The notes under the pieces: generated by a model
What the model was told of the DNA's origin: nothing
The model's input: only the letters and a program-made list of their open reading frames with translations
Database searches by the model: none
Made by a program: the position numbers and the translations under genes
Origin: Clostridia bacterium
GTDB lineage: Bacteria > Bacillota > Clostridia > Christensenellales > CAG-1252
Assembly (NCBI GenBank): GCA_017455385.1
Contig: JAFTBD010000002.1
Span: 1 to 32,934, forward strand
Length of the DNA stretch: 32,934 nt
Reading direction: 5' to 3'
In this document: piece after piece, positions 1,589 to 32,934 of the stretch
Layout: every line of letters begins with the position of its first letter
Position numbering within the stretch: the first letter of the stretch is position 1

Positions 1589-1618
1589 TTGACATCTTCG
1601 CGCGGAATTTGCTATAAT
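1589..1618 (+). promoter_or_regulatory. SigmaA-type promoter for the large surface-protein gene
   Basis: TTGACA (1589-1594), 18-nt spacer, TATAAT (1613-1618), about 50 nt upstream of the ATG at 1671. Confidence 0.6.
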
Positions 1619-1670
1619 GTCTGCACTACACTTGTTATTATCGCGCGGCGCGCGTTATGAGGTCGGAGAT

Positions 1671-4600: not shown

Positions 4601-6977
4601 AGATAATAGCGCCAGGAGCACATCGGATTCCAAAAACTATTTGGAACAAGCATTCTATTATTCCGAAAACACGAGAGACTACGTCTTCTTGCTCAGCGTG
4701 CAGGAGGTGACGGCTAAAGAGTATGGTTTTAATAGCAACTATTCCGCCGACGACTTTACGGCACGCTACAAAGAGCATACCGATTATGCTCTGTCACAAG
4801 GAGTGTGGTACGAATCGAATTGGACGAGCAGTGATTGGTGGCTCCGCTCTCCGCGTAATTATTACGGTTCTAACTCTCTTGCGGGAATGGTTTCTTACAG
4901 TGGATGCGTTGTTTCGGCAGGTTCTTCCGTTACAAATACCTACCTTGGCGTCGTCCCTGCCTTGCGCCTCAGGCTCCACGAGCCCACGCCGCCCGCCTAT
5001 ACCCGCGTGGACGCGGAAGGCGCGGAAGCGGAAGACGGCGATTATCTCCTCTTCGGCTCCTACCCGCAGAGCAGGGTGCAGGACGCATCGGTCGTCTCCG
5101 CCCTGAACGGAAGAGCGGGGGATCTCCCCACCGCCTCGGATAGCGGCAAGTGGACGAGCTACGGATATTATAAGAACGGCGTGGATACCACCGCATATAT
5201 GTGGTATATCGATCTCGCCTACGAGGGAGCGAAATACCGCGGCGTGTATTTCACGTCTTATCGTCCCTATTACACCACCTCGGACGGCACGGCGGAGAAT
5301 AGTTTCCAAGACGATAATGGATACAGCACCGCTACGGCGTATTGGTTCCTCTATGAGCCCATCAAGTGGCGCATCCTCGCAGAGGGGGAGGGCGAGGCGT
5401 TGATCCTCGCGGAGCTCATCCTCGACAGTCAGCACTTCAATTACGGGAATGACAGTTACAACCTTTATCGGGACAGCACGATACGCACCTGGCTGAATGA
5501 TACCTTCTATAATACCGCGTTCACCGCCCTGCAACGAGACGTGATCCTTCTGACCGAGGTGGAGAACGGCGCGCGCACGACCAATCCGGACGGTAACGCT
5601 TCGGAATGGAATTACGGTGCCAATAATAACGCCTACGGGAATACGCAAGACTATGTCTTCCTGCTCAGCGAGCAAGAGGTCACCATGGAGAGCTACGGCT
5701 TCGATCCCGATACGAACGGGTTCGACGAGGCGCGCAAGAAGAACACCACGGACTACGCACAGGCACAGGGAGCTTATACCACCGACACCACGGACATCGA
5801 AGGGAAAGGTCGTTGGTGGCTTCGTTCGCCCCATTACTCTGTCGTGAACTATGCCTACACCGTGCGGAATTCCGGTCCCGCGGAATATCTGACCAACTAT
5901 ATCCGCAGTACGGATACCGGCGTCGTCCCCGCCCTTCGCATTCGCTTGAAGGAGGCGGAAGAGCCCCAAGAACCGCAACAGCCCCAGCAAGAGGTCTCGG
6001 CGGCATATACCCGCGTGAACTCGCAGGGTGCGCCCGCGGAAGACGGAGACTACGTTCTCTTCGGCTATTATCCCCAGACGCAGATCTCGGATCCCACCGT
6101 TGTCGCGGCTCTCAACGAGGCGGCGGACGGACTTCCCACCCCCTCGGCGCCCGGGCTTTGGAGAGCATACGACTATTACGTCAACGGGCATAACGAATCC
6201 GTCTATATGTGGTACACCGATCGCAAATATGAGGGCGAGCGCTACCGCGGGGTGTATTTCGCCTATTATAGACCCTACAGGACGAATCTCGCGTCCTATT
6301 CGGACACCGGCTATCAAGACGACAACGGCTATTATACCTCGACGACGTATTGGTTCAAGTACGAGCCCATCAAGTGGCGCATCCTCGAGGAAGAGGGCGG
6401 GGAAGCATTCCTGCTCTCGGAAATGATCCTCGACAGCGGGGATTATTATGCGGACGCGAGCACGGGCACCTTCACGCACAACGACGGTATCGGTTACGCC
6501 AATAATTATGTGCTTTCGAATATTCGCAAATGGTTGAATGACACCTTCTATAATACGGCGTTCAAGTCGGCGGAGAAGGCGATCATCCTCACGACGCAGG
6601 TGGATAACAGCGCGCTGACCACGACCGATGCCGGCAGCAATCTGACGCAAGCGACGAAATACGAATCGAGCTATACCGAGGACTACGTCTATCTGCTCAG
6701 CCTGCGAGAGGTGACGAGCACATATTATGGCTTCGACAGCGATTACAACGCGAATGATCCCGCGCGTCGAAAGATGAATACCGACTATGCGAAGTCGCAA
6801 GGCGCATATACGCATACGGGCGCCTATGCGGGGGCGGGCTATTGGTGGCTCCGTTCGCCGAGCAACGGGTATGACAATTATGCAACGGACGTTTCCCCGA
6901 GCGGAAGCACCGGCAGTGGCAGCTTTGTGAGCCTTACCTACCTCGGCATCGCCCCGGCGATACGTATTTCGCTGTGA
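1671..6977 (+). CDS. Very large secreted or cell-surface lipoprotein. Contains Cys-rich CxxC repeats, a BspA-type leucine-rich repeat segment, and three tandem ~330-aa modules resembling the DUF6273 family (WWLRSP motif)
   Basis: GGAG lies 4 nt before ATG 1671, and the signal/lipobox is MWRKSKYVILAVVLLICCAVLVA|CGSG. The track start at 1617 adds 18 non-signal residues and lies at the -10 box. LRR_5-like segment: LYVPATYNGLPVIGIDSGAFANATFVKRIILPVGLAYIDPDAFYGCDAIEEI. The three modules share YPQSRV, KYRGVYFTSYRP, YWFKYEPIKWRIL, IRNWLN..FYNTAF, DYVFLLS..EV, WWLRSP and GVVPALR. Confidence 0.85.
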   Translation: MWRKSKYVILAVVLLICCAVLVACGSGASQRELRTAAKATRMTYLFTDAFEGLDSVRSATKTESGLSVLVRCDTESFSLSDVSIPGASFALYVSREYQIPYPEEIELNIDEPFTAFLSATRGDAVLECDITILRAHDFGEWAYIAEPTCTEAGSKHRQCAFCDLDEVVAIDALGHDYTDWTEVRPVTCLEESERVRTCRRCEYEDREITAAPGHDLVHHEGKASCTEPGWAPYDTCTRCDYTTFEELPASGHQPITDPAKEATCTEDGCSEGSHCEKCGEVFTEQTIYPALGHLYAEISHKDPTCTEAGLIVRKCSRCEDEEREEIAALGHSFDGEICTRCGYRAAVGLVYRLVDGYYVVESIGTFAGSELYVPATYNGLPVIGIDSGAFANATFVKRIILPVGLAYIDPDAFYGCDAIEEISAPSDIFYNTQILDRAFGAVAKCTITGSYLYRDGAYVSPVISASSSVTMRATITTAGRFECNYAVSSERGSDILYVYYNGTLLDQISGEVGYKPLVLNATLVGDVIEFTYAKDSSINNGDDCAYVRFATPKSIPSSLKTVTLLDAKGNVESKIFYADGEISGVSFDKDAKLSDYTVNAARSYPLYFGGTADEWRTFKGDHTSFTNKEDVYFYEAEHGSERNWRYVNGVPALGPYGTHTFENEGYTCVARVCSCGYTIPADTVDPVHKYSEWAVETPATCTVNGSETRRCALCGKVERESIELKDHTPGEWTRTEPTCTKDGERVKKCTVCQTVLEREAIPAAHHYENGVCTVCGTPQPTFTRVNAEGVEDEEGNYIFFGEYPQSRVTDENVAAALTLEAGDLPTESDSKRWTSYGYYKSSVNTSDYMWYIDLPYSENKYRGVYFTSYRPFSTTSASAADCSYQDNGGYYVNAIYWFKYEPIKWRILEDNDGEAFIFCENIIDSQEYYADVHTRYGDETVYPNNYKESNIRNWLNESFYNTAFGTAQKNAILLSFVDNSARSTSDSKNYLEQAFYYSENTRDYVFLLSVQEVTAKEYGFNSNYSADDFTARYKEHTDYALSQGVWYESNWTSSDWWLRSPRNYYGSNSLAGMVSYSGCVVSAGSSVTNTYLGVVPALRLRLHEPTPPAYTRVDAEGAEAEDGDYLLFGSYPQSRVQDASVVSALNGRAGDLPTASDSGKWTSYGYYKNGVDTTAYMWYIDLAYEGAKYRGVYFTSYRPYYTTSDGTAENSFQDDNGYSTATAYWFLYEPIKWRILAEGEGEALILAELILDSQHFNYGNDSYNLYRDSTIRTWLNDTFYNTAFTALQRDVILLTEVENGARTTNPDGNASEWNYGANNNAYGNTQDYVFLLSEQEVTMESYGFDPDTNGFDEARKKNTTDYAQAQGAYTTDTTDIEGKGRWWLRSPHYSVVNYAYTVRNSGPAEYLTNYIRSTDTGVVPALRIRLKEAEEPQEPQQPQQEVSAAYTRVNSQGAPAEDGDYVLFGYYPQTQISDPTVVAALNEAADGLPTPSAPGLWRAYDYYVNGHNESVYMWYTDRKYEGERYRGVYFAYYRPYRTNLASYSDTGYQDDNGYYTSTTYWFKYEPIKWRILEEEGGEAFLLSEMILDSGDYYADASTGTFTHNDGIGYANNYVLSNIRKWLNDTFYNTAFKSAEKAIILTTQVDNSALTTTDAGSNLTQATKYESSYTEDYVYLLSLREVTSTYYGFDSDYNANDPARRKMNTDYAKSQGAYTHTGAYAGAGYWWLRSPSNGYDNYATDVSPSGSTGSGSFVSLTYLGIAPAIRISL
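2115..2699 (+). repeat. Block of five full ~31-33-aa Cys-rich repeats plus a partial (pattern C-T-x2-G-x5-C-x2-C-x10-13-GH); a second, shorter block lies at 3771-3998
   Basis: Repeats read from the translation: CTEAGSKHRQCAFCD..ALGH, TCLEESERVRTCRRCE..APGH, CTEPGWAPYDTCTRCD..ASGH, CTEDGCSEGSHCEKCG..ALGH, CTEAGLIVRKCSRCE..ALGH. Second block: CTVNGSETRRCALCG, CTKDGERVKKCTVCQ. The four-Cys spacing suggests zinc-ribbon-like units. Confidence 0.7.
4011..6974 (+). repeat. Three tandem in-frame ~1-kb coding repeats (4011-4994, 4995-6002, 6003-6974) inside the surface-protein gene
   Basis: The modules start at TFTRVNAEG (4011), AYTRVDAEG (4995) and AYTRVNSQG (6003). Periods are 984, 1008 and 972 nt, and the conserved motifs are collinear in all three. 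A PQEPQQPQQ linker lies between modules 2 and 3. Confidence 0.85.
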
Positions 6978-20156: not shown

Positions 20157-21065
20157 ATGAAAGTATTTGTGGACGGAAGCGCAGGCACGACGGGACTCGA
20201 GATCGTGAGCAGGCTCAGAGAGAGGGCGGATATCACCCTCGTTCTTCTCGGCGACGACCTTCGCAAAGACCCCTCTGCCCGTAAGGAAGCCATCCTCTCG
20301 TCCGATCTGACCGTGCTCTGTCTGCCCGATCAGGCGGCGGTGGAGGCGGTGGCATTCGCGGAAGAGGGAACGGGTAAGCTCATCGACGCCTCCACGGCGC
20401 ACCGCACCGATCCCCGCTTCGTGTATGGTTTTCCTGAGCTGAAAGGACAGCGAGAGAAGGTCCGCGCGGCGAAGTACGTGGCGAATCCCGGCTGTCACGC
20501 CAGTGGGTTCATCGCCCTCGTGGCGCCTCTCGTCGAGGCGGGTGTACTGGATAAGGCGGCGCCCCTCTCCGCGTTCTCCCTGACGGGCTATACCGGCGGC
20601 GGCAAGAAGATGATCGCGGATTACGAGGCGGCGCAAGGCGCTTTGGACGCGCCGCGGCAGTACGCGCTCACCCAGCAGCACAAGCATCTCAAAGAGATGG
20701 TCGCCGTGACGGGCATCGAGCGCGCCCCCGCGTTCCTTCCCGTAGTAGGCGCTTTCCCCCGCGGGATGCAGGTCTCCGTTCCGCTCTCGCCCGATTGGCT
20801 CTCTTGCGGCGCGGAAGGGCTGAAAGAAGTCTATCGCGACCTTTTTAGGGGCGGCGTTGTGCGTTATCAAGACGTCGACACCCCGATGCTCGCCGCCGAT
20901 ATGATGGCGGGCAGGGACGGAATGATCGTCTCCGTGATTGGGAATGAGGATCGCATCGTGGCGGTCGCCTCCTTCGATAACCTCGGCAAAGGGGCGAGCG
21001 GTGCGGCGATACAGAACCTGAATCTTATGCTCGGTGCGGACGAATGCACCGGTTTGAAATTATAA
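20157..21065 (+). CDS. argC: N-acetyl-gamma-glutamyl-phosphate reductase (short, ~300-aa form)
   Basis: MKVFVDGSAGTTGLEIVSRL, with the active-site Cys in ANPGCHASGF. GAGGAG lies 7 nt upstream of ATG 20157. The track start at 20070 lies inside the promoter/operator. Confidence 0.85.
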   Translation: MKVFVDGSAGTTGLEIVSRLRERADITLVLLGDDLRKDPSARKEAILSSDLTVLCLPDQAAVEAVAFAEEGTGKLIDASTAHRTDPRFVYGFPELKGQREKVRAAKYVANPGCHASGFIALVAPLVEAGVLDKAAPLSAFSLTGYTGGGKKMIADYEAAQGALDAPRQYALTQQHKHLKEMVAVTGIERAPAFLPVVGAFPRGMQVSVPLSPDWLSCGAEGLKEVYRDLFRGGVVRYQDVDTPMLAADMMAGRDGMIVSVIGNEDRIVAVASFDNLGKGASGAAIQNLNLMLGADECTGLKL

Positions 21066-21102
21066 TACTCTTTCGCCCTATGGGCGAATGACAGGAGGAA
21101 GT

Positions 21103-22317
21103 ATGATAGTAGTTACGGGCGGCGTCACAGCCGCGAAAGGATTTACGGCGGGCGGCGTGCATTGCGGCATCCGCAAGAGCAGGAGCAAGCGCGACCTCGG
21201 GCTCATTTGGTCGGAGGTGCAGGCGCAGGCGGCGGCGGTCTATACGACGAACCTCGTGAAAGGCGCCCCTCTCCTCGTCACCAAAGCGCATTTGGCAAAC
21301 GGCACGGCGCAGGCTTGTATCATCAATAGCGGCAACGCGAATACCTGCAATGCGAACGGCGTGGAGATCGCGGAAGAGACCGCGGCGCTTCTCGCTGCCG
21401 AGCTCGGCATCCCCGCGGACGACGTCGTCGTGGCGTCCACCGGAGTCATCGGTCAGCCCATGTCGATAGAACCCTTTGCGGAGGGCATCCCCGCCTTGGT
21501 GAAGGATCTCTCCAAGGACGGCTCCCCCCGTGCGGCGGAGGCGATCATGACCACCGACACCGTGAAGAAGGAGATCGCCATCACCGTCGAGATCGGCGGC
21601 AAAGAGGTCACCCTCGGCGGCATCGCGAAAGGGAGCGGCATGATCCATCCCAATATGGCGACGATGCTCGTTTTCCTGACCACCGACTGCGCCATCTCCT
21701 CGGCGATGCTCCAAAAGGCGCTCTCCACCGACGTGCAGAGCAGTTTCAATATGGTCAGCGTGGACGGCGACACATCCACCAACGATATGGTGACCATTCT
21801 CGCGAACGGTCTCGCGGGCAATCCGATGATCGACAGCGAGAATGAGGACTTCGCTCTCTTTATGAAGGCGCTCAATACCGTTACCGTTTCCCTTTGCAAA
21901 GCGCTCGCGGCGGACGGCGAAGGCGCCACGAAGTTCCTCGAGTGTTCCGTCTGCGGCGCGAAGACCCTCGCGGATGCGAAGAAAGCGGCGAAAGCGGTCA
22001 TCTGTTCCAGCCTCGTCAAAGCGGCGATGTTCGGCTCGGACGCGAACTGGGGCAGGGTGCTCTGCGCCATCGGTTATTCCGGCGCGGACGTGGACGTCAA
22101 TCAAGTGGACGTTTCTTTCGTCTCCCGGAAAGGCGAGATCCTCGTCTGTAAAGACGGCGCCTCGGTGGACTTCTCGGAGGACGTGGCGAAAGAGATCTTG
22201 TCCGAGAAAGAGATCACGATCGCGGTCACCTTGCATGACGGCTCCTTCGGGGCGGTCGCTTGGGGCTCCGATCTCACCTATGATTACGTGCGTATCAACG
22301 GCGATTATCGCACCTGA
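21103..22317 (+). CDS. argJ: Bifunctional glutamate N-acetyltransferase / amino-acid acetyltransferase
   Basis: GGVTAAKGFTAGGVHCGIRK, with the autoprocessing site in HPNMATMLVFLTTD. AGGAGG precedes ATG 21103. Confidence 0.9.
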   Translation: MIVVTGGVTAAKGFTAGGVHCGIRKSRSKRDLGLIWSEVQAQAAAVYTTNLVKGAPLLVTKAHLANGTAQACIINSGNANTCNANGVEIAEETAALLAAELGIPADDVVVASTGVIGQPMSIEPFAEGIPALVKDLSKDGSPRAAEAIMTTDTVKKEIAITVEIGGKEVTLGGIAKGSGMIHPNMATMLVFLTTDCAISSAMLQKALSTDVQSSFNMVSVDGDTSTNDMVTILANGLAGNPMIDSENEDFALFMKALNTVTVSLCKALAADGEGATKFLECSVCGAKTLADAKKAAKAVICSSLVKAAMFGSDANWGRVLCAIGYSGADVDVNQVDVSFVSRKGEILVCKDGASVDFSEDVAKEILSEKEITIAVTLHDGSFGAVAWGSDLTYDYVRINGDYRT

Positions 22318-22329
22318 TAAGGAGGCAGT

Positions 22330-23184
22330 ATGGATCTTTCCAATAAAGAAAGGGCGGAAGTGCTGACAGAGGCGCTTCCCTATATCAAGAGGTACGTCGG
22401 CAAGATCGTCGTGGTGAAATACGGCGGCAATGCGATGATAAACGAAGCCTTGAAAGAGCAGGTCATGGAGGACGTGACCCTTCTCTCCCTCATCGGGGTG
22501 AAGGTCGTGCTCGTGCATGGCGGCGGTCCCGAGATCTCCGCGGTGATGAATAAGCTCGGGCTGTCTCCCACCTTCGTGGACGGTCTCCGCGTGACGGATA
22601 AAGACACGGTGGACGTGGTGCAGATGGTGCTCGCGGGCAAGATCAATAAGTCGCTCGTGCGTTTCTTGGAGTCCAAGGGCGGCAAGGCGATGGGCATCTC
22701 GGGCATCGACGGCAAGCTCATCGTCGCGAAGCAGAAAGACGAGAAGCTCGGCTACGTGGGCGAGATCGAGAAGATCAATATCAAGCCTGTTTTCGACTTG
22801 CTCGAAAAAGGGTATATCCCCGTCGTGTCCACCATCGCCACGGGCGAAGACGGACAGACCTATAATATCAACGGCGACACCGCGGCGGCGTATCTTGCGG
22901 GCGCACTCTCCGCGAAGAGGCTCATTATGATGACCGATATCAGCGGCGTGCTCCGCGACAAGGACGATCCCTCCTCGCTGATCCCCGAGATCCATATCTC
23001 CGATGCGGAGAGGCTATATCAAGAAGGCATCATTTCGGGCGGCATGATCCCGAAAGTGGAGTGCTGTATCACCGCCATCAAGCAGGGCGTCAAGAGGGCG
23101 ATCATTATGGACGGCAGGGTGCCGCATTCCATCTTGATGGAGCTCCTGACCGACGAAGGTAGCGGCACGATGTTTGTGGAGTAA
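22330..23184 (+). CDS. argB: Acetylglutamate kinase
   Basis: YIKRYVGKIVVVKYGGNAM, VLVHGGGPEI and YNINGDTAAAYLAGAL. GGAGG SD. Confidence 0.9.
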   Translation: MDLSNKERAEVLTEALPYIKRYVGKIVVVKYGGNAMINEALKEQVMEDVTLLSLIGVKVVLVHGGGPEISAVMNKLGLSPTFVDGLRVTDKDTVDVVQMVLAGKINKSLVRFLESKGGKAMGISGIDGKLIVAKQKDEKLGYVGEIEKINIKPVFDLLEKGYIPVVSTIATGEDGQTYNINGDTAAAYLAGALSAKRLIMMTDISGVLRDKDDPSSLIPEIHISDAERLYQEGIISGGMIPKVECCITAIKQGVKRAIIMDGRVPHSILMELLTDEGSGTMFVE

Positions 23185-23186
23185 TA

Positions 23187-24353
23187 ATGAATACCGTAGA
23201 GAAAGATCAAGCCTACATAGCGAATACCTACGCCCGTTTCCCCGTGGAGATCGTGCATGGCGCGGGCTCCGTCGCGTACGGCGCGGACGGCAAAGAATAT
23301 ATCGACATGGGCGCGGGCATCGCGGTCAATACCTTCGGCTATGCGGACGAAGCATACAATGCGGCGGTCAAGGCGCAACTGGACGCTTTTCAGCATACGT
23401 CCAACCTCTATTACAGCGCTCCGGCGGCGGATCTCGCCGAAGCCTTGGCGAAAAAATCCGGATTGAAGAAAGTCTTTTTCGGCAATAGCGGCGCGGAAGC
23501 CAACGAGTGCGCCATCAAGACGGCTCGCAAGTGGGGCGTGGAGCATAAAGGCGAGGGCGCTTTTAACATCGTCACCCTCCAAGGCTCTTTCCACGGCCGC
23601 ACAGTCACCACTCTCTCCGCCACGGGACAGGACGTATTCCATAAACATTTCGATCCTTTTACCGGAGGATTCTCCTATGCGCCCATCAACGACGCGGCGG
23701 CGCTCGAAGCGCTCGTAAATGAGAAGACCTGCGCCGTGATGGTGGAGTTCGTGCAGGGTGAAGGGGGCGTGAACCCCTTGGACGCCGCTTTCGTGCGGAA
23801 GATCTTCGAGCTCAAAGAGAAGTACGACTTCCTCGTCATCGCGGACGAAGTGCAGACGGGGAACGGTCGGACGGGGCATTATTTCGCCTATCAGGCATTC
23901 GGCGTTCTCCCCGACATCGTCACCACGGCGAAAGGCTTGGGCGGCGGTCTGCCCATCGGCGCTTGCCTCTTCGGAGAGAAGACGGCGGACGTCCTCGGCA
24001 GAGGCGACCACGGCTCCACCTTCGGCGGTAATCCCGTCGTGGCGGCGGGCGCGCTCTCCATTGTGAAGCGTATAGACGACGCTCTCCTCGCGGAAGTCGC
24101 GAAGAAGGGCGAATATATCAAAAGCAAACTCGCGGGAGCCACGGGCATCCTCGGGGTGACGGGGATGGGCTTGATGCTCGGCGTCAAGACGCTCGCGGAC
24201 GCGAAGAAGGTCGTGATGAGCTGTCTCGAGAAGGGCGTCCTCTTCCTGACCGCGAAAGACAAGATCCGCCTGCTCCCCGCGCTGAATATCCCCTACGCCT
24301 TGATCGATAAGGCGATCGACGTGCTTTTAGAGTCCGTCAAGGAGGCGTTATGA
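23187..24353 (+). CDS. argD: Acetylornithine aminotransferase (class III PLP aminotransferase)
   Basis: FFGNSGAEANECAIKTARKW, LVIADEVQTGNGRTG, DIVTTAKGLGGGLPIGA and HGSTFGGNP. Confidence 0.88.
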   Translation: MNTVEKDQAYIANTYARFPVEIVHGAGSVAYGADGKEYIDMGAGIAVNTFGYADEAYNAAVKAQLDAFQHTSNLYYSAPAADLAEALAKKSGLKKVFFGNSGAEANECAIKTARKWGVEHKGEGAFNIVTLQGSFHGRTVTTLSATGQDVFHKHFDPFTGGFSYAPINDAAALEALVNEKTCAVMVEFVQGEGGVNPLDAAFVRKIFELKEKYDFLVIADEVQTGNGRTGHYFAYQAFGVLPDIVTTAKGLGGGLPIGACLFGEKTADVLGRGDHGSTFGGNPVVAAGALSIVKRIDDALLAEVAKKGEYIKSKLAGATGILGVTGMGLMLGVKTLADAKKVVMSCLEKGVLFLTAKDKIRLLPALNIPYALIDKAIDVLLESVKEAL

Positions 24354-25348
24354 CCCTTTACAAGAAGAACTTTTTGAAAATGTTGGATCTCTCCAAAGAG
24401 GAGGTCGAGGAATATCTGCGCGTCGCCGCCCTGCTCAAAGATAAGAAGAGGAAGGGCGAGGTGCATGACTTCCTGCGTGGGAAGAATATCGCGTTGATCT
24501 TCGAGAAGACCTCCACTCGTACCCGTTGCGCCTTCGAAGTGGCGGCGGCGGACCTCGGAATGCACGCGGTATATCTCGACCCCAAAAGCTCGCAGATCGG
24601 CAAGAAGGAGAGCATCGAGGACACCGCGAAGGTGCTCGGCAGGATGTTCGACGCCATCGAGTACCGCGGCTACGGGCAGGAGATCGTGGAGGCGCTCGCG
24701 AAGTATTCCGGCGTGCCCACCTTCAACGGACTCACGAATGAGTCTCACCCCACCCAGATCCTCGCGGACCTCTTGACCGTGCGGGAGCATTTCGGCAAGG
24801 TGGAAGGGCTCACCCTCGCCTATTACGGGGACGCCCGCTACAATATGGGCAACTCCCTGATGGTCGGCGCGGCGAAAATGGGCATGAACTTTACGGCGTG
24901 CTGTCCCGCGAAGTATTTCCCCGACGCAGCCCTCATCGAGAAATGCCGAGAGATCGCGAAGGAGACGGGTTCTGTTCTCCGTTTCGAGGAAGACCCCGCC
25001 AAAGGCAGCGTGGGCGCGGACGTTATCTACACCGACGTGTGGGTCAGCATGGGCGAACCTCCCGAGGTGTGGGAGAAGCGTATCGCGGATCTCTCCCCGT
25101 ATAAGGTAACGGGCGCCGTGATGGCGCGCGCGAATAAGGGCGCGATCTTTATGCATTGTCTGCCCGCGTTTCACGACCTCGGCACCGAGATCGGTCGGGA
25201 GATGAAAGAGCGTTTCGGGCTGGAGGATATGGAAGTCACGGACGAGGTGTTCCTCGGGGAGCAGTCGGTGGTGTTTGACGAGGCGGAGAACCGCCTGCAT
25301 ACTATAAAAGCCGTCATCGCCTGTTCTCTTGTCAAGGACGGCGTATAG
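24350..25348 (+). CDS. argF: Ornithine carbamoyltransferase
   Basis: FEKTSTRTRCAFEVAA, SHPTQILADL, DVWVSMG and FMHCLPAFH. ATGA overlap with argD and an AAGGAGG SD. The anabolic role is inferred from operon context. Confidence 0.88.
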   Translation: MTLYKKNFLKMLDLSKEEVEEYLRVAALLKDKKRKGEVHDFLRGKNIALIFEKTSTRTRCAFEVAAADLGMHAVYLDPKSSQIGKKESIEDTAKVLGRMFDAIEYRGYGQEIVEALAKYSGVPTFNGLTNESHPTQILADLLTVREHFGKVEGLTLAYYGDARYNMGNSLMVGAAKMGMNFTACCPAKYFPDAALIEKCREIAKETGSVLRFEEDPAKGSVGADVIYTDVWVSMGEPPEVWEKRIADLSPYKVTGAVMARANKGAIFMHCLPAFHDLGTEIGREMKERFGLEDMEVTDEVFLGEQSVVFDEAENRLHTIKAVIACSLVKDGV

Positions 25349-25460
25349 CGGCGCATATGCTTCGCTAACTACCTCGCCGCCAAGCAGTCACGTACAGGAA
25401 GTACGCTCCTACTCGGCGGCTCGGAGAGCGCTTGCCTCTGCACCACTCTCCGCCGTCCTT

Positions 25461-25515
25461 GATAAGAGAATGGTGGATAAGAGAACGGTGGATAAGAGAA
25501 CGGTGGGAGAGAAAA
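25461..25515. repeat. Tandem 15-bp repeat, three copies plus a degenerate fourth (GATAAGAGAA[T/C]GGTG)
   Basis: gataagagaatggtg (25461-25475), gataagagaacggtg (25476-25490), gataagagaacggtg (25491-25505), then ggagagaaaatg. Located in the 281-nt argF-carB spacer. Confidence 0.8.
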
Positions 25516-25629
25516 TGCGCCTCCGTACTTTAAGAGAGAAAGGATAGGATAGAGGACTCCACGTCCTTGAAAAGGGCAGGGAACAGAAATAAGGATTTAT
25601 TCGAAATGGTCGGATAAATAGGAGAATAT

Positions 25630-28600
25630 ATGAAAAGGAAAGATATCAAGAAGGTGCTCATCATCGGGTCGGGACCCATCGTGATCGGGCAGGCGGCGGA
25701 GTTCGACTATGCGGGCACGCAGGCGTGCTTGGCGCTCCGCGAAGAGGGCTACGAGGTCGTACTCGTGAATTCCAATCCCGCCACCATCATGACGGACAGC
25801 GAGATCGCGGACAAGGTCTATATGGAGCCTCTGACCGTGCCTTATATCGAGGAAGTCATCAAGAAGGAGCGACCCAATGCGCTCGTGCCGGGTATCGGCG
25901 GGCAGACGGGGCTGAATCTCGCCATCGAGCTCGCGGATAAGGGCATTCTGGAGAAATACGGCGTGGAGCTCCTCGGCACTGACGTCAAGAGCATTCGTTT
26001 GGCGGAGGATCGCGAACTTTTCAAGGAAATGTGCGAGAGGATCGGCGAGCCCGTTATCCCCTCCGAGATCGCGTATAATTTGGAAGAGGCGATCAAGGCG
26101 GCGTCCGACATCGGCTATCCGGTGGTGGTGCGTCCCGCATTCACCCTCGGCGGTACGGGCGGCGGCTTTGCCGAGAACGAAGCGGAGCTCATCGAGGTCG
26201 CCACGAACGGATTGCGCCTCTCTCCCGTCAGTCAGGTGCTCATCGAGAAGAGCGTCAAGGGGTATAAAGAGATCGAATTCGAGGTCATGCGTGACCAAGA
26301 GGGGAATACCATCACCATCTGCGGGATGGAGAACGTGGACCCCGTCGGCGTGCATACCGGCGATTCCATCGTGGTCGCCCCGATATTGACCCTCGCGCCC
26401 GACGAGCTCAAAATGCTGAATGACAGCGCCATCAAGATCATTAAAGAACTCGAGATCGCAGGCGGTTGCAACGTGCAATTCGCCCTCGCGCCCAAAGGGA
26501 AAGAATACTTCCTCATCGAGGTGAATCCGAGGGTGTCGCGTTCCTCGGCGCTCGCGTCCAAGGCGAGCGGCTATCCCATCGCCCGCGTCACGGCGAAAGT
26601 GGCGCTCGGCATGACGCTCCCCGAGATCGAGGTGGCGGGCGGCAAGGCGATCACCGAGCCTTCCTTGGACTACATCGTCGCCAAGTTTCCCCGTTTCCCC
26701 TTCGACAAGTTCACCACGGCGTCAAACCTGCTCGGCACGCAGATGAAAGCGACGGGCGAGGTCATGGGCATCGGGTCCAATCTCGAAGAGTGCATTCTGA
26801 AATCGGTGCGCTCCTTGGAGGTCAAGGTGAATCACCTTTACCATCCCAAGTTCGACGATATGTCGGTCGAGGCGCTTTTCGACTACATCAAGGTTTTCCG
26901 CGCGGATAATTTCTTCGCCATCGCGGAGCTTTTGTCCCGCGGCGCGGCGGTAGAGGACGTGGCGAAAGTGACGATGATCACTCCTTTCTTCATCGAGTCC
27001 ATCGCGAAGATCATCGCGGAGGAGAATGCCCTCAAGGCGGCGCCGTTCTCGGCGGACGAGCTCCTGAAAGCCAAGAAAATGGGCTTCTCGGACGGCTACG
27101 CGGCGAGGCTGTGGAACGTCACCGAGGCGGAGGTCTCGGCGTTCCGTAAAGAGCACGGCATCAAGCCCGTTTTCCGTATGGTGGACACCCTCCATACCGG
27201 CAAATACATCCCGTACTTCTATTCTTCGTATAGCGGCGTCAACGACTCCGTCAAGACGGATAAAAAGAAGATCGTCTGTCTCGGCGCGGGACCCATCCGT
27301 ATCGGGCAGGGCATCGAATTCGACTATTCCACCGTCCACGCGGTGAAGACCATCAAGGCGTCGGGCTACGAGTCCATCATTATCAATAATAACCCCGAGA
27401 CCGTTTCCACCGATTACACCACGGCGGACAAGCTGTATTTCGACCCGCTGACCCCCGAAGACGTGATGAACGTCTTGGATTTCGAGGGCGCGGAAGGGGT
27501 CATCACATCCCTCGGCGGGCAGACGGCGATAAACCTTGCGGCGCCCCTTGACGCGCGCGGCGTGACCTTGCTCGGCACGGGCAAGGCGGCGATCGACAAG
27601 GCGGAAGACCGCGAGCTTTTCGACGAGCTCCTCGCTTCGGTGGGCATCCCCCGTCCGCGTGGTACGGCTGTGACGGACGTGGAGAGCGGCGTCAAAGCGG
27701 CGGCGGAGATCGGCTATCCCTTGCTGGTGCGTCCGAGTTTCGTCCTCGGCGGCAGGGCGATGCAGATCGTTTCCAAGGAAGCGGAACTGCGCAAATATCT
27801 CTCCGAGGCGGTCAGCATCGACGCGTCCCATCCCGTCCTCATCGACAAGTATATTAAGGGCAAAGAGGTGGAGGTGGACGCCATCTCGGACGGCGAGACG
27901 GTCTTCGTCCCCGGCATCATGGAGCTCGTAGAGCGCACGGGCGTGCATTCGGGCGACAGCATCTCGGTCTATCCGTCTTTCTCCCTCACGGATTCCGTGA
28001 AGCAGACGGTGCTGGATTACACAGAGAAGCTCGGGCTCGCCATCGGCATCCAAGGGCTTTTCAACGTGCAGTACATCGTGGATGGCGAGAACGTTTACGT
28101 TATCGAGGTCAATCCCCGTTCTTCCCGTACCGTTCCCTTCCTCTCGAAGTCAACGGGTATCTCCGTGGCGGATGTCGCCACCAAGGTCATCCTCGGCGAG
28201 ACATTGAAAGAGCAGGGCTACGTCGGCTATCGCGAGAAGGCGGGCGCCTATTTCGTGAAAGTCCCCGTTTTCTCCTTCCATAAACTTCGCGGCTTGGACG
28301 CCTATCTGTCCCCCGAGATGAAGTCCACGGGCGAGGCGATCGGCTGCGGCGCGACCCTCACGCAGGCATTCGAGAAAGCATTCATCGCGGCAGGCACGAA
28401 GATCAAACGTTCCGGCACGGTGCTCCTCACCTTGGCGGATGAGGACAAAGAGGAGGCTCTCCCGCTCATCAAGCGCTTCGCCGCCCTCGGGTTCAGCTTC
28501 GCGTCCACCGGTCTCAGCACCAAGTTCCTCGTGGAGAAAGGCTTCGCCACCACCCACCTCGGCAAGCCGAGCGAGGGGAGCAACGAGGTGGAGGATTACA

Positions 28601-28770
28601 TCCGCGCAGGGAAGGCGACCTACGTCGTGAATACCCGCGCCATCCTGTCGGGCGTGCATTACATCGACGGCGAGACCATCCGCCGCGCCGCCATCGAGAG
28701 CAACGTGCAGATGATGACCTCGCTGGATACCGTCCGCGCCCTTCTCTCCGTCCTTGAAGCGCATAAATAA
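25630..28770 (+). CDS. carB: Carbamoyl-phosphate synthase large subunit
   Basis: KKVLIIGSGPIVIGQAAEFDYAGTQA and the duplicated KKIVCLGAGPIRIGQGIEFDYSTVHA show two ATP-grasp halves. C-terminal MGS-like domain (GTVLLTLADEDKEEALPLIKRFAALGF). AGGAGA SD. Confidence 0.92.
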   Translation: MKRKDIKKVLIIGSGPIVIGQAAEFDYAGTQACLALREEGYEVVLVNSNPATIMTDSEIADKVYMEPLTVPYIEEVIKKERPNALVPGIGGQTGLNLAIELADKGILEKYGVELLGTDVKSIRLAEDRELFKEMCERIGEPVIPSEIAYNLEEAIKAASDIGYPVVVRPAFTLGGTGGGFAENEAELIEVATNGLRLSPVSQVLIEKSVKGYKEIEFEVMRDQEGNTITICGMENVDPVGVHTGDSIVVAPILTLAPDELKMLNDSAIKIIKELEIAGGCNVQFALAPKGKEYFLIEVNPRVSRSSALASKASGYPIARVTAKVALGMTLPEIEVAGGKAITEPSLDYIVAKFPRFPFDKFTTASNLLGTQMKATGEVMGIGSNLEECILKSVRSLEVKVNHLYHPKFDDMSVEALFDYIKVFRADNFFAIAELLSRGAAVEDVAKVTMITPFFIESIAKIIAEENALKAAPFSADELLKAKKMGFSDGYAARLWNVTEAEVSAFRKEHGIKPVFRMVDTLHTGKYIPYFYSSYSGVNDSVKTDKKKIVCLGAGPIRIGQGIEFDYSTVHAVKTIKASGYESIIINNNPETVSTDYTTADKLYFDPLTPEDVMNVLDFEGAEGVITSLGGQTAINLAAPLDARGVTLLGTGKAAIDKAEDRELFDELLASVGIPRPRGTAVTDVESGVKAAAEIGYPLLVRPSFVLGGRAMQIVSKEAELRKYLSEAVSIDASHPVLIDKYIKGKEVEVDAISDGETVFVPGIMELVERTGVHSGDSISVYPSFSLTDSVKQTVLDYTEKLGLAIGIQGLFNVQYIVDGENVYVIEVNPRSSRTVPFLSKSTGISVADVATKVILGETLKEQGYVGYREKAGAYFVKVPVFSFHKLRGLDAYLSPEMKSTGEAIGCGATLTQAFEKAFIAAGTKIKRSGTVLLTLADEDKEEALPLIKRFAALGFSFASTGLSTKFLVEKGFATTHLGKPSEGSNEVEDYIRAGKATYVVNTRAILSGVHYIDGETIRRAAIESNVQMMTSLDTVRALLSVLEAHK

Positions 28771-28793
28771 GAAACGTACGACAATATAAGAAA

Positions 28794-28828
28794 AACGCCT
28801 TCGCGAATGAACGAAGGCGTTCTTTGTT
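28794..28828. terminator. Terminator hairpin between convergent carB and the phosphodiesterase gene
   Basis: 10-bp stem aacgccttcg (28794-28803) / cgaaggcgtt (28812-28821), loop cgaatgaa. A-run upstream and TCTTTGTT downstream. Confidence 0.75.
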
Positions 28829-28869
28829 GTCGGATCGTCGGCTTTCCGCGCCCGCGACGGGGCAGGGGA

Positions 28870-29703
28870 TCAATTGTGGAAAAGGTCTGTCGTGATGTAG
28901 TCCGCGCCGTATTCGCGCGCGGCGGCGAGATCCGCGTCCGTGTCGATCGTCCATACGTTCACGGTAAGCCCCGCATTATGAAATGTCGTCACCAGTTCCT
29001 CGGTCACGACGTTCTTCTCGGGGTCCGCGGAGAGCTTGACGTCGATGCTGATATTGTTTCTGAGGCATTGCGCGAATTGGGCGTCGTTCGGGGTTTGCGA
29101 GAGGTACTGGAGCGGGACGGTCGGATCCGCCTTTTGCGCTTCTTTCAGCGTGACGTAAGAGAAAGAAATAAAGGTGATCTGCTTGCGGTCGTACGTTTCG
29201 TCCACGATGCGGAGAACGTTCAGGAATTCGCTCTTTGAGAAATAGTCTTTCAGCTCGATGACCGCCACCTTGCCGCCCGACTTGCACGCCTGCAGGTAGG
29301 TCTCGAAGGTGCAGAGATGGGCAGGGGTGCTCGTTTTGGTGTTCTCGACAGGCTTCGCGGTGAGCGTGGCGAGGTCGTTGTCGGCGATCTTCAGGGAAGA
29401 GCCGTCCGCGTACTTGACGGTGTCGTTGTGGTTGCAGACGTAGTAGCCGTCTTTCGTTTTGCGGATGTCCGTCTCGATGCCGTAGAAACCAAGCTCCGCC
29501 GCCGCGCGGAAGGATGCCTCCGTGTTCTCCGGATAGCGGTAGCTGTAGCCGCGGTGCGCGACGTATTTCACGCCGCTCTCGACCACGACCTCCTCGTCCC
29601 CCGTCGGGGAGTCGTTACAAGCGGTAAAAGTGCCCATGATGATCGCTATGACAATGATCGCTATGACTGTGAGCCATATCCTTTTGCTCCTATTCGCCTT
29701 CAT
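28870..29703 (-). CDS. Glycerophosphodiester phosphodiesterase (GDPD family), lipoprotein
   Basis: Lipobox IIMGTFTA|C. GDPD N-terminal signature VAHRGYSYRYPENTEASFRAAAELGFYGIETDIRKTKDG. GGAGG lies upstream of ATG 29703. Confidence 0.85.
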   Translation of the reverse strand: MKANRSKRIWLTVIAIIVIAIIMGTFTACNDSPTGDEEVVVESGVKYVAHRGYSYRYPENTEASFRAAAELGFYGIETDIRKTKDGYYVCNHNDTVKYADGSSLKIADNDLATLTAKPVENTKTSTPAHLCTFETYLQACKSGGKVAVIELKDYFSKSEFLNVLRIVDETYDRKQITFISFSYVTLKEAQKADPTVPLQYLSQTPNDAQFAQCLRNNISIDVKLSADPEKNVVTEELVTTFHNAGLTVNVWTIDTDADLAAAREYGADYITTDLFHN

Positions 29704-29999
29704 TTGTCATCCCTCCTCCCTTCCTTCATACCATATCCCGGGGTGGGAAGTCAATATGCTCTCTGTCCTTTGTTAAGAAAAAAGGGCCAAAGCACTCGCG
29801 TTAGTTGCTTGCAAAAAATAGACCTATCCGTATTATTTCCAAATTCACGGAAGTGTTCGGATATCATAGGTGAATACTTTTTCAAAATTTTTTTAGGAAG
29901 GCATTTTGTTAATACATGAAAAAGCCAAGCGGTTAGCCTGGCTTGATGCGTTAAAATGTTCTATTGATTTTGATACCGAAGAAATCCCTCGTAATAAAT

Positions 30000-30034
30000 A
30001 AAACGACTCCCGGCTTGCACCGAGAGTTCGTTTT
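30000..30034 (-). terminator. Possible terminator of the 138-aa gene (minus strand)
   Basis: Imperfect stem aaaacgactc (30000-30009) / gagttcgtttt (30024-30034, one bulge). On the minus strand it is followed by a T-rich run (TTTATTTATT). Confidence 0.35.
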
Positions 30035-30084
30035 ATTGTCAAGTGGTGGGCAACAGATGAGCTAAAAAGAACAATCATTTTGGT

Positions 30085-30501
30085 CTATAGATATCGCTCT
30101 ATTTGTTTGTATTGTTCTTGCGTCAAATTATCAATACGTTTGTTAAAAACAATTCCATCATCGGTAATTGAATCAATACATGGAGTTATCCATTCGTGAT
30201 CTTCAAAATCAAATCCATATCTTAACAATAGAATATCAAATTGGCTGTTAGTTCCGTATTTTATGTAGTTTTGCAAGGCTTTTGCTCGTAAATCGGTAGT
30301 CGCATTATAATAAATCTCTAATCCTGCGTTAATAGGATCAACAAGAGATAGTGAAATAACTTTATCCAAATAATCATATGTATCGTAAACAAGCCTATCG
30401 TAATCACATTGATCTATGGGTGTATGTTCTGGAAATAATGAGATTGTCCCTTTATGTTTATTAGGGATAGAAAATGCCTCTTGTGTGAATTTTAAAGTCA
30501 T
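30085..30501 (-). CDS. Hypothetical 138-aa protein, no recognisable family
   Basis: Clean ORF with the AT-rich codon usage of the island. No signal peptide, transmembrane span or HTH seen. Weak, closely spaced SD (AAGGGA directly before the ATG). Divergent from the FRG gene, with only 50 nt between the start codons. Confidence 0.5.
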   Translation of the reverse strand: MTLKFTQEAFSIPNKHKGTISLFPEHTPIDQCDYDRLVYDTYDYLDKVISLSLVDPINAGLEIYYNATTDLRAKALQNYIKYGTNSQFDILLLRYGFDFEDHEWITPCIDSITDDGIVFNKRIDNLTQEQYKQIERYL

Positions 30502-30551
30502 TCCCTTTATTTCTTGTTTAAACTCTTTTTCTGTTATCTCGTTTTGATTAT

Positions 30552-31649
30552 ATGCTTTTTTTAGTTCCCGTTGAGTTTTTTTATATCGACGCAGTTAATT
30601 CGCTAATTAAAAACAAAAAGGAACCGCATAGAATCTTTTTATACCGTGGAGAACCTGAATTGTATGAAGAGAGTTCATGCATTCCGAGTATTTTTAGAAG
30701 GAAAGATTTGTCGGATAATGTATATTACGAGAAGAGTTTATATAATGCAATTAAGCAAAACAAGCTGTCGAAAGGAGATAACTATCTTGAAACGGCCATT
30801 GAGGCACAGCATGGAGAGTTTCCAAGTAGGCTATTGGACGTTTCATACAATTCTTTAATAGCACTGTACTTTGCAGTTACTCCGTATTATCACAAAGAAG
30901 TAACTGCATATGATGACAAAGACGGTGCGGTATATGTGTTTTATGTGGATAAGCTCTTTAGTCCAAGCGCATCCAATACGGTTGATAATTATGACGCAAT
31001 TATAAATAAAACAACTTGGTTGAACCAACCGATCTTTGCTAAGACACACAAGATGATTGATCACACTAAACTAAATAATAGGATAATTGCACAACAAGGT
31101 GCATTTATTTTGTTTCAGGGAAACGATGCAGAAAGAATCCCGCAATATATGTTTGATAGAATAGAAATCCCATACAGCGCCAAAAAGACCATTAGAGAAG
31201 AATTGGTTGCGTTGTTTGGATTAAGTAAAAGTTTTGTTTTCCCTGAGATAACGAATTATGTTGACGACTTATCGGAGAAAAATAAAATTCTTATTACTGA
31301 GGATTTTAGTATCGATGGTGAAATAGAGTCAGTTTTTAACACCTTTTCGGATGAATTGGACTATTTCTCCGATTTTATAGTTGCATTTGAAAGAAAAAAG
31401 CATGAAAGAGATTTTTATAACGCAATTCAGAAGATGGAAATGATAATAAATAGCTATAAGAGTTCCTTTGAAGTTTTTATTGAAATGGTAGAAAGAAATT
31501 CGGAAATCAATAATGAATTGAAGAGATATAGTATTGATGCGCAAAAAGATAGAATTGACATTATCAGAGAGTATAATCGTTTACTAACGGTATTTATCGA
31601 AGAATTAAAAGTGGAAGGGATAGAAATATCGGAGAGTTTGAAGTTTTGA
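30552..31649 (+). CDS. FRG-domain protein with a ~130-aa helical C-terminal extension
   Basis: HRIFLYRGE (the F/Y-R-G motif), PSIFRR, AIEAQHGEFPSRLLDVSYNSLIALYFAV, DGAVYVFYVD and NNRIIAQQGAFILF match the hallmarks of Pfam FRG (PF08867). No obvious SD. An in-frame stop at 30519-30521 limits the possible upstream extension. Confidence 0.75.
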   Translation: MLFLVPVEFFYIDAVNSLIKNKKEPHRIFLYRGEPELYEESSCIPSIFRRKDLSDNVYYEKSLYNAIKQNKLSKGDNYLETAIEAQHGEFPSRLLDVSYNSLIALYFAVTPYYHKEVTAYDDKDGAVYVFYVDKLFSPSASNTVDNYDAIINKTTWLNQPIFAKTHKMIDHTKLNNRIIAQQGAFILFQGNDAERIPQYMFDRIEIPYSAKKTIREELVALFGLSKSFVFPEITNYVDDLSEKNKILITEDFSIDGEIESVFNTFSDELDYFSDFIVAFERKKHERDFYNAIQKMEMIINSYKSSFEVFIEMVERNSEINNELKRYSIDAQKDRIDIIREYNRLLTVFIEELKVEGIEISESLKF

Positions 31650-31667
31650 ATTAAAAGGGGAAGACAA

Positions 31668-32934
31668 ATGATAACAGAGATCAACAGAAGATATGTTAAT
31701 TATATTTCGGAAGCATTATACAACTTTGGATTAGATAGCGATGAGGAAGTATGGAAACAAGATCCTCTTCTGCTCCGCAGCTTTGTGCAAAATAGAGATC
31801 CGATTGTTGTAGAGAATTCAGAGACCCTCGGTATTACGCAAGGGGAAGAGTTTATGCTTTTAATTCGCCTTAATGAAGATGGCTTCTCTCGCGATAAAAT
31901 AGTTGAAATAGCGGCGAAGGAATTGTCAAAAATAAAAGAAAAAAAACTTTTACGTATAATTAATATTGTTTGGTTTTTTCGAAATGTAAAAAGTCGTATT
32001 GAGATAGCGAGCATTCTTTCAAATCCTGTTCAATTTAAGAAGGAATTAAGCGCACATAAAATAAGTGGCATTAGGAGGATTCGTTCTATTTTATATTTGG
32101 ACGGTGAAGCGAAAACAAAAACGAAAGAGTATAAATTGAAAGCAAAGCGCTACGAGATGCTTATTCACAAAGACAATCGTAGTCACATAAATGATAACGA
32201 CGCTTTAAGGGGATATGTGTTTACGGCAAATCTTTTTGACATTGTCGAATTGTATAATGAGATTGGGGATGATATATTCAAAAAGAATCTTCGTCTTGGG
32301 ATAAAAGAACAAATGGGTGTAGATTCTGCTATAAAAGAAACTTTAAGAACAGCCCCGGATCATTTTTGGTTTCGAAATGGGGGGATAACTATATTAATAA
32401 AAAAGACCGATTTAGTTTTTGATCGAACAAACGAAATCGTGTTAAAAAGGGCTGGGGAGTCCGAAAGGAATTTCTGGATTATTAATGGAGCGCAAACTAT
32501 AAGTGCTGCTGCAGATTTTTATTATGGGGAAAAGGGAGCAGAAGATTCAAAAAGAGCAAAAGTAATTGTCAGAATAATTCAAATAAATGAGAAATCAACA
32601 AAGGCAGAAAGTGATGCTGATATTATAAGTATAGCATTGAACAGACAAAAACCGATAAAGGATGAAGATATTGCATTTAACAATGTTGTTGTTCGTGAAT
32701 GGAATGAGTACTTTAATAAAGAAGGATACACTCTTTGTCGTAGAAGTGAGTTTGTCCATTCTCCCAATGCTATGAGTCTGGTTGAATTTGCAAGGGCAAG
32801 AAAGGCAGTAGCCGGGCATCCCGGAGAGGCAAGGAGTAGCGCATCTTCTGAATTGTTAAAGACGAAAGATGCTTTTTTCCAAGATATTGATATTTTCGTA
32901 AAGGAATTGCAAAAAACAGAGCATGATTTCTCAA
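31668..32934 (+). CDS. AIPR-like (abortive infection phage resistance family) protein, 5' partial (422 codons, runs off the window)
   Basis: My own codon-by-codon translation from ATG 31668 found no stop to 32934. AAAGGGG SD at 31654-31660. Motifs LRGYVFTANLFDIVELYNEIGDDIFKKNLRLGIK, DHFWFRNGGITILIKK and FWIINGAQTISAAADF mirror the conserved AIPR core (..NNGITI.. / ..IVNG.QT..). The ORF is absent from the supplied track, presumably because it has no stop codon in the window. Confidence 0.7.
   Translation, partial: MITEINRRYVNYISEALYNFGLDSDEEVWKQDPLLLRSFVQNRDPIVVENSETLGITQGEEFMLLIRLNEDGFSRDKIVEIAAKELSKIKEKKLLRIINIVWFFRNVKSRIEIASILSNPVQFKKELSAHKISGIRRIRSILYLDGEAKTKTKEYKLKAKRYEMLIHKDNRSHINDNDALRGYVFTANLFDIVELYNEIGDDIFKKNLRLGIKEQMGVDSAIKETLRTAPDHFWFRNGGITILIKKTDLVFDRTNEIVLKRAGESERNFWIINGAQTISAAADFYYGEKGAEDSKRAKVIVRIIQINEKSTKAESDADIISIALNRQKPIKDEDIAFNNVVVREWNEYFNKEGYTLCRRSEFVHSPNAMSLVEFARARKAVAGHPGEARSSASSELLKTKDAFFQDIDIFVKELQKTEHDFS

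Follow-up and report, generated by a model that had tools for sequence, protein, structure and literature searches.

An FRG-domain gene and an AIPR-family gene form a near-obligate pair in Bacillota: a candidate two-gene defence operon

We examined a stretch of 32,934 nucleotides (nt) from a Clostridia bacterium (GenBank assembly GCA_017455385.1, contig JAFTBD010000002.1, positions 1 to 32,934), which we call the window. At its right end, the window carries a gene for an FRG-domain protein that is followed, on the same strand, by a gene of the AIPR family. We found that one subfamily of FRG proteins is the obligate partner of one clade of AIPR proteins and that this partnership coincides with the loss of the nuclease domain of stand-alone AIPR proteins. 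The pairing is near-obligate, the two proteins have diverged together, and a domain of AIPR has been replaced; unlike these observations, the function of the pair is a proposal. We propose, with a probability of about 45%, that FRG-AIPR is an operon of two genes that is self-contained, moves horizontally, and acts in the manner of abortive infection against phages or other mobile elements, with AIPR as the sensor or scaffold and FRG as the effector.

To our knowledge, the FRG and AIPR domains have long been listed in catalogues of defence islands, and their mechanism is not known. What is new is the combination: two families that are linked to defence and poorly understood make up a defined architecture of two genes. 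In place of two vague annotations, there is now a concrete hypothesis (a sensor or scaffold with a detachable effector) with residues to mutate.

The gene pair and its distribution

The original prediction, which was made from the letters of the window, placed an FRG-domain open reading frame (ORF) at 30552-31649 and an AIPR-like ORF with its own Shine-Dalgarno sequence 18 nt downstream. Profile searches bear out both genes. The pair and its domains (in amino acids, aa) are laid out as follows:

30552..31649, plus strand: FRG-domain gene, 365 aa (Pfam FRG, PADLOC PDC-S15)
30624-31286, plus strand: conserved core of FRG with an enzyme-like pattern, about aa 25-245 (alignment)
31311-31613, plus strand: family-specific C-terminal helical domain of FRG, about aa 254-354 (AlphaFold model)
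31650..31667, plus strand: intergenic spacer, 18 nt, with a ribosome-binding-like run, GGGGAAG, before the AIPR ATG
31668..32237, plus strand: N-terminal domain of AIPR, about aa 1-190, a domain of the FRG-linked AIPR clade only
32250..32934, plus strand: AIPR core, from about aa 195 (Pfam AIPR), cut by the contig end

Residues 29-111 of the first protein match Pfam FRG (PF08867; E = 3.2e-12; 47.6 bits against a cut-off of 25), and the ORF also matches nine PADLOC models for PDC-S15, the best of which is PDLC04936 (E = 3.7e-33). The FRG stop codon (TGA, 31647-31649) is followed by the 18-nt spacer attaaaaggggaagacaa, which includes the Shine-Dalgarno-like run GGGGAAG, and the ATG of the AIPR gene is at 31668. 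The AIPR ORF continues to the end of the window (422 codons) without a stop. Its residues 204-352 match Pfam AIPR (PF10592; E = 1.5e-20; 74.5 bits, cut-off 25) and cover positions 1-138 of the 308 in the profile; the window end cuts off the remainder, and the full-length homologue P0122 covers positions 1-268. A second assembly of the locus (scaffold L001 from ENA) carries the AIPR ORF on to 525 codons, so the truncation reflects the end of the assembly and not biology. The original prediction had called for sequence beyond 32934 to reach the AIPR C-terminus and the neighbouring genes: L001 supplies more of the gene, and it too ends inside the ORF, before the C-terminus and the right flank. 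The closest full-length homologue has 579 aa, and full-length partners have 570-760 aa.

Homologue searches identified over 500 relatives of FRG and over 260 relatives of AIPR, many of them on common contigs. We then scanned one genome per species for 185,579 species, using the FRG alignment as the query, and scored the ORFs with our own FRG and AIPR hidden Markov models (HMMs). The window's FRG subfamily was found in 67 of these species representatives, all of them Bacillota, and in 64 of the 67 an AIPR gene lies directly downstream on the same strand. In the three exceptions, the contig ends (L032), the FRG gene is truncated (L063), or there is no AIPR gene (L044). The paired loci are mostly from Clostridia (including Lachnospiraceae, Hungatella, Oscillospiraceae, and Acutalibacteraceae), with a few from Bacilli (Rossellomorea, Lysinibacillus, and Exiguobacterium). 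Eight distant FRG genes (26-37% identical) have no AIPR neighbour and are mostly from Proteobacteria.

The pairing also holds in the reverse direction. Starting from AIPR in metagenomes, we found FRG upstream in 37 of the 38 clade members with upstream DNA, or in 14 of 15 clusters after clustering at 90% identity. More distant AIPR genes are without FRG, except for three divergent or degenerate pairs (L138, L148, and L169). Across 63 loci, the pairwise identities of FRG and AIPR co-vary (r = 0.87), and none of 999 Mantel permutations reached this r. AIPR evolves faster than FRG (mean identity of 32% versus 48%). The median of the projected spacing between the two genes is about +14 nt, and 52 of the 63 loci are within -70 to +60 nt.

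No third gene is conserved with the pair. The largest flanking family occurs in 7 of about 70 loci, and we therefore rejected a third conserved component. Three neighbourhoods with gene calls have FRG and then AIPR in wholly different surroundings: a type I restriction-modification system and a TIR-family (CAP12-PCTIR) gene in one, conjugation genes and an RHS toxin in another, and MerR and an aldo-keto reductase in the third. More broadly, the right flank differs in every related locus. Because the flanks differ and no third gene is shared, the pair is a cassette of two genes, inserted at many different sites, and not part of a larger described system. The original prediction had also suggested that no named defence system has this make-up, and neither PADLOC nor NCBIfam has a named multi-gene system for the pair. 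The searchable literature does not mention FRG and AIPR together, and we found no published test of the pair. For annotation pipelines, a PDC-S15 match with an AIPR gene after it should be treated as one two-gene unit.

The pair should be experimentally accessible because it is carried by cultivable gut Clostridia and Bacilli. Strains with the pair include Hungatella hathewayi DSM 13479, Clostridium neonatale, Pseudobutyrivibrio ruminis, and Lysinibacillus sphaericus.

The settings of the pair vary and are rich in genes of mobile elements and of restriction-modification systems. Its 125 immediate neighbours matched 160 Pfam families. Serine recombinases are the commonest, followed by cysteine desulfurases, Dcm methylases, LysR regulators, integrases, and HerA; DndH is among the PADLOC matches. 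One locus (L002, 1-4419) is a clear defence-island setting: the pair is about 3.5 kb from type I restriction-modification genes (HsdM and HsdS), an AAA_14/DUF4143 gene, and a CAP12-PCTIR gene with a TIR domain. In seven loci (L025 at 326-778, L031, L032, L041, L044, L045, and L061), an ORF of about 150-200 aa with no Pfam match is directly upstream of FRG on the same strand and may be an accessory gene of one subclade. L044 has it together with FRG but lacks AIPR. In L064 (8785-10320), FRG is truncated and AIPR intact, with an inserted transposase of the IS66 family separating the two.

We did not find the subfamily on plasmids or phages. A tblastn search of plasmids and phages gave only distant matches to the FRG core (at most 35% identity). 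IMG/VR yielded no relative of FRG, and the AIPR-led search of IMG/VR gave one distant and degenerate pair (L169, 2443-9815). In this divergent pair, FRG is split into two ORFs, and the neighbours are a MutH-like endonuclease, a Dcm methylase, and a Viral_Rep/helicase gene.

Architecture of the two proteins and comparison with known systems

FRG has two parts. The core contains most of the 76 columns that are invariant over 30 homologues (mostly within residues 30-235), and these include the motifs Y-R32-G-E34, Q86-H87-G-x-F-P-S92-R93-L-L-D96-V-x-Y-N, D170-H171, and N175-x-R177-I-x-A-Q181-Q182-G. The N-terminal [FY]RG motif is present as YRGE at residues 31-34 and is unchanged throughout the 30 homologues. 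Judging from the alignment, this pattern of conservation is enzyme-like. The last 120 or so residues are poorly conserved in sequence and are modelled by AlphaFold as a helical bundle, with a predicted local distance difference test (pLDDT) score of about 85-97 and helices at 254-277, 285-315, 317-325, and 330-354; the mean pLDDT of the whole model is 76.5. The sampled FRG homologues without AIPR (n = 8) have about 270-330 aa and no comparable tail. Their matches to the FRG profile are confined to its core: seven of the eight end at around position 250, and that of L081 reaches 358. The original prediction had suggested that the helical tail could be the partner-binding part of FRG. The absence of the tail from all eight sampled AIPR-less proteins fits this suggestion, and we infer the binding itself. 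A sequence-profile search of PDB with the tail gave only coiled-coil-like and non-significant matches, to the plant nucleotide-binding leucine-rich repeat (NLR) proteins NRC3 and MLA10 (E = 0.1-0.25), and these matches to NLR coiled-coil domains are probably compositional.

The original prediction described the FRG domain as having no experimentally defined function. It is indeed a domain of unknown function, but it is already covered by PDC-S15 in PADLOC, and it has been classed by two groups as ADP-ribosyltransferase (ART)-like and predicted to be an NADase or antiviral effector (PMC9503650, PMC12522546). Frg is also listed among the ART-superfamily domains of NAD+-derived signalling (PMC9503650). 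PDC-S15 is itself a candidate system, and the searchable literature uses the name only to label detections. The window's FRG core belongs with it, given the nine matching models. However, PDC-S15 is a single-gene candidate whose best models have 276-300 positions and represent only the FRG core, whereas in the window's subfamily the core is extended by about 120 aa of helical tail, and the gene is almost always found with AIPR rather than as a single gene. One of the distant, AIPR-less FRG genes (L081, 6962-9486) has a Macro-domain gene that overlaps its start and a HAD phosphatase gene after it. This single instance is a hint of ADP-ribose chemistry.

The AIPR family was defined from the lactococcal protein AbiU. 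AbiU1/AIPR proteins have been described as containing a ParB-superfamily domain that is often fused to other nucleases (PMC3632139), and AbiUi, which is described as nuclease-like, confers phage resistance by itself (PMC13064643). The window's AIPR clade resembles AbiU1 (AbiUi) and other stand-alone AIPR proteins (PF10592; related to COG1479) in its core, in its motifs (NGxQT and others), and in its size (about 570-750 aa). Like it, they are linked to restriction-modification and mobile elements, and the prototype gives phage resistance (PMC13064643, PMC3632139). The invariant motifs of the core are FWFRNxGIT (FWFRNGGIT), INGAQT, LNRQKPIK, and FARAxKAxxGxPGxAR; in the AIPR model, INGAQT is at the junction of a strand (269-273) and a helix (275-286).

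The difference from stand-alone AIPRs lies at the N-terminus and in the FRG neighbour, which the sampled stand-alone proteins lack. Stand-alone AIPRs have an N-terminal region of about 240 aa with the signature of a PD-(D/E)xK-type nuclease, DG..D..[IV]D...(~15)...Q.K. Of 23 stand-alone N-termini, 21-23 have this motif, which is absent from the FRG-linked clade. Instead, the FRG-linked proteins begin with an unrelated domain of about 185 aa, modelled in P0122 as an alpha/beta domain at residues 1-163. Among 1.84 billion representative proteins, this domain had 13 matches, all of them N-termini of the FRG-linked AIPR clade. When we compared the two kinds of N-terminus with hhalign, they showed no homology, and the alignment was limited to the first helix of the AIPR core.

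A HEPN domain has been proposed for AIPR (PMC3506569). We rejected this assignment because neither the FRG-linked nor the stand-alone N-termini have a conserved Rx4-6H motif; RKAVAGH in the window's AIPR is not conserved among homologues. Structure comparison of the AIPR model to PDB with Foldseek gave nothing below E = 1e-3 and mostly helical bundles, as for FRG. The top matches are SAVED/CARF domains of Cap4, which are non-significant (E = 0.25, probability 0.33), and a sequence-profile search of PDB with AIPR gave nothing. In the alignment of AIPR partners (P0125-P0240, alignment A2), there are short forms of about 570-645 aa and long forms of about 690-760 aa. The long forms carry an extra conserved domain of about 130 aa at the C-terminus (columns ~760-905), and the window's protein falls with the short forms.

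Among multi-gene systems, Mza (MzaABCDE) shares an AIPR-family component. MzaE is an AIPR protein, and a PADLOC scan of the window's AIPR with E values up to 1 gave a weak match to MzaE and nothing else (E = 2.4e-4; 31 bits with the NCBIfam model). However, the equivalog cut-off for the NCBIfam model is 1050 bits, and no MzaA-D partner is conserved in the roughly 70 related loci.

Proposed mechanism and its alternatives

Comparative genomics supports the view, already taken in the original prediction, that FRG and AIPR form an operon and a defence candidate; of the refuting outcomes that it named, those that our searches could check did not occur. The anti-phage action itself is predicted. In our proposal, the ancestral state would be a stand-alone AIPR of the AbiU1 type, with a ParB-superfamily-like core fused to an N-terminal restriction-endonuclease-like nuclease. 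The FRG-linked clade would have lost the fused nuclease and gained its private N-terminal domain. AIPR would then act as both sensor and scaffold, binding nucleic acid or a nucleotide through its ParB-like core, and FRG would dock on the N-terminal domain of AIPR through its clade-specific C-terminal helical bundle. FRG would be the effector, most likely by NAD+ consumption or ADP-ribosylation, as its published classification as ART-like would suggest, and its activity would stop the replication of the phage or the growth of the host. We infer the defence phenotype, the physical interaction, the sensing partner, and the NAD+ chemistry.

In a more specific form, FRG-AIPR would be an unnamed two-component immune system in which a separate FRG subunit, with an ART fold and using NAD+, displaced the built-in nuclease of an AbiU1-like protein. 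We consider this form less likely than not. If it is true, AIPR/ParB-like sensors would gain a new effector chemistry and the FRG domain would get its first defined function. If the ART-like assignment holds, FRG-AIPR would share NAD+ depletion, ADP-ribosylation, or an NAD-derived signal with Thoeris, DarTG, and RES-Xre (PMC9503650). It would differ from them in that no similarity in sequence or fold was detected and that none of them uses an AIPR partner.

Several results weigh against our proposal. No member of the FRG-AIPR pair is linked to a phenotype. Foldseek searches of PDB and BFVD with the FRG model had no match with E below 1e-3, the top 50 contained no ADP-ribosyltransferase, and the most conserved loops of FRG are modelled with pLDDT under 50. 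An ADP-ribosyltransferase would be expected to have a split beta-sheet fold with an NAD+-binding catalytic triad; of the conserved residues, R32, S92, and Q181-Q182 are near predicted strands. Given the Foldseek results and the low pLDDT, the ART assignment comes from the literature, and the Macro gene beside FRG in L081 is the one independent hint. Nor did we recover the ParB-like nature of the AIPR core, for which one would look for a ParB-N fold with a DGxxR-type motif where a strand meets a helix: the best ParB-N match in Foldseek has E = 1.4, and there is no match to ParB, DUF262, or DGQHR in Pfam or NCBIfam. Housekeeping genes often adjoin the pair, and so its enrichment in defence islands is only qualitative. 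As for the window's own copy, we found no promoter-like site between the start of FRG and the minus-strand ORF before it (the HamB remnant described below), and the 3' end of AIPR is beyond the contig, so that this copy can be called no more than putatively functional.

We considered four alternatives, in decreasing order of weight. The first is a relay similar to Thoeris, in which FRG would sense infection through its helical tail and make a small ADP-ribose-derived messenger from NAD+, and the N-terminal domain of AIPR would bind the messenger and turn on the AIPR core as the effector. This seems improbable to us, although it has the most in its favour of the four. It agrees with the place of Frg among the ART-superfamily domains of NAD+-derived signalling (PMC9503650). 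The SAVED/CARF receptors of Cap4 head the AIPR structure matches, and the nuclease gave way to another N-terminal domain instead of just being lost. But the receptor matches are non-significant, and the AIPR core has no established catalytic activity. Furthermore, messenger systems usually shuffle their synthases and effectors among operons, while FRG and AIPR diverge together, and in the sampled loci the FRG tail and the AIPR N-terminal domain were seen only in the pair, as one would rather expect of a physical complex.

A toxin-antitoxin or addiction module is somewhat less probable. Here one protein would hold the other in check (for example, FRG as an ART-type toxin restrained by its partner), and the main role of the pair would be to maintain a mobile element and not to fend off phages. 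ART-fold toxins are common in toxin-antitoxin pairs, such as DarTG and RES-Xre. The pair is a two-gene operon with tight or overlapping spacing, recombinases and integrases often adjoin it, and there is the Macro gene beside one distant FRG (L081). However, a partner of 570-760 aa would be atypical for an antitoxin, and, as described above, neither tblastn nor IMG/VR placed the subfamily on a plasmid or phage. Also, either gene can be intact while the other is broken or absent: AIPR is broken or absent beside an intact FRG in six loci (L006, L040, L058, L109, L129, and L044), and L064 has the reverse. Since such loci exist, neither protein looks unconditionally toxic by itself.

Less probable again is a role outside of defence, for instance as an accessory to DNA modification, as a regulator, or in some other process that is unrelated to conflict. 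The AIPR family has been linked to DndB, a regulator of phosphorothioation to whose N-terminal region AIPR is related (PMC3632139, PMC3506569); genes for DndH and cysteine desulfurases flank a few of the loci; and many of the neighbours are housekeeping genes. Nevertheless, no modification enzyme is conserved beside the pair. Its sporadic occurrence (67 of 185,579 species), foreign composition, frequent pseudogenes, and neighbouring recombinases and restriction-modification genes are typical of defence cargo.

Finally, two independent single-gene systems that happen to be side by side (an FRG of the PDC-S15 type and an AIPR of the AbiU1 type) are very improbable: PADLOC does model FRG as a single-gene candidate and the lactococcal AbiUi does work alone (PMC13064643), but the pairing is near-obligate in both directions, with a fixed order and strand and short or overlapping spacing, and the two proteins diverge together and each has a domain that is found only in the paired subfamily.

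The low-GC island and a likely remnant of Hachiman

The pair lies in an island of low G+C. The original prediction had noted that the composition falls to about one third G+C at roughly 29.76 kb, and this is correct: G+C is 0.575 for positions 1-29703 and 0.342 for positions 29760-32934, and maximum likelihood puts the change point at 29746. The transition is just beyond the start of a minus-strand gene for a GDPD phosphodiesterase (28870-29703; Pfam GDPD, E = 5e-33). The island has three ORFs, namely the 365-aa FRG, the open-ended AIPR, and a minus-strand ORF of 138 aa that the original prediction had missed. The remaining features of the island are:

29704..30084, no strand: left edge of the low-GC island (change point at 29746 and two minus-strand terminator-like hairpins)
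30085..30501, minus strand: ORF of 138 aa, likely a remnant of the 3' end of HamB (weak match to PADLOC HamB, and homologue P0248)

The start codon (ATG) of the 138-aa ORF is 50 nt from that of FRG. Downstream of this ORF, and before the start of the GDPD gene, there are two hairpins on the minus strand that resemble intrinsic terminators (30027-30006 and 29944-29922). Residues 37-107 of the 138-aa protein match positions 751-822 of the 866 in PADLOC's HamB model (E = 0.0016). Its homologue P0248, which is 51% identical to it, matches HamB positions 748-846 more convincingly (E = 2.9e-6). P0248 is encoded directly after a HamB-like helicase of 632 aa (E = 7.5e-46) on an element that bears an integrase (L175, 3998-6366), and it is apparently the frameshifted continuation of that helicase.

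The 138-aa ORF is probably the C-terminal remnant of a HamB helicase from a Hachiman system; this assignment comes from profile matches. The protein and its homologues match the last 100 or so positions of the HamB models, whereas Hachiman requires both the HamA nuclease and full-length HamB, and the window has only HamB positions ~750-846 of 866. Because just the C-terminal ~138 aa are left, with neither HamA nor the helicase core in the window, this is a remnant and not a system. We also considered the ORF as a third component of the cassette and rejected this, because it is absent from all of the other FRG-AIPR loci and resembles the tail of HamB. The simplest reading is that FRG-AIPR took the place of most of a Hachiman system, in a hotspot for defence genes by the GDPD gene, and left behind the 3' end of HamB and its terminators.

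Could the drop in G+C be due to a chimeric misassembly? This is unlikely. Scaffold L001 is 99.98% identical to the window (2 mismatches in 12,383 nt), and a Logan contig (L174) is identical to positions 28316-29867 of the window. Because two non-identical assemblies and the Logan contig all cross the junction between the GDPD gene and the low-GC sequence, the junction does not look like an assembly chimera. Both assemblies break within the AIPR gene, at sites that are about 310 nt apart (32934 in the window and 12693 in L001), and the Logan contig stops at 29867, which is near the edge of the island. These breaks suggest strain-level variation or low coverage at the island.

The high-GC backbone beside the island (~20550-28770) contains a cluster of arginine biosynthesis genes (argC, argJ, argB, argD, and ornithine carbamoyltransferase (OTCase)-type genes), followed by carB, and so the context is ordinary housekeeping chromosome. 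At the far left of the window, there is an ORF of 1786 aa on the plus strand (1617-6977).

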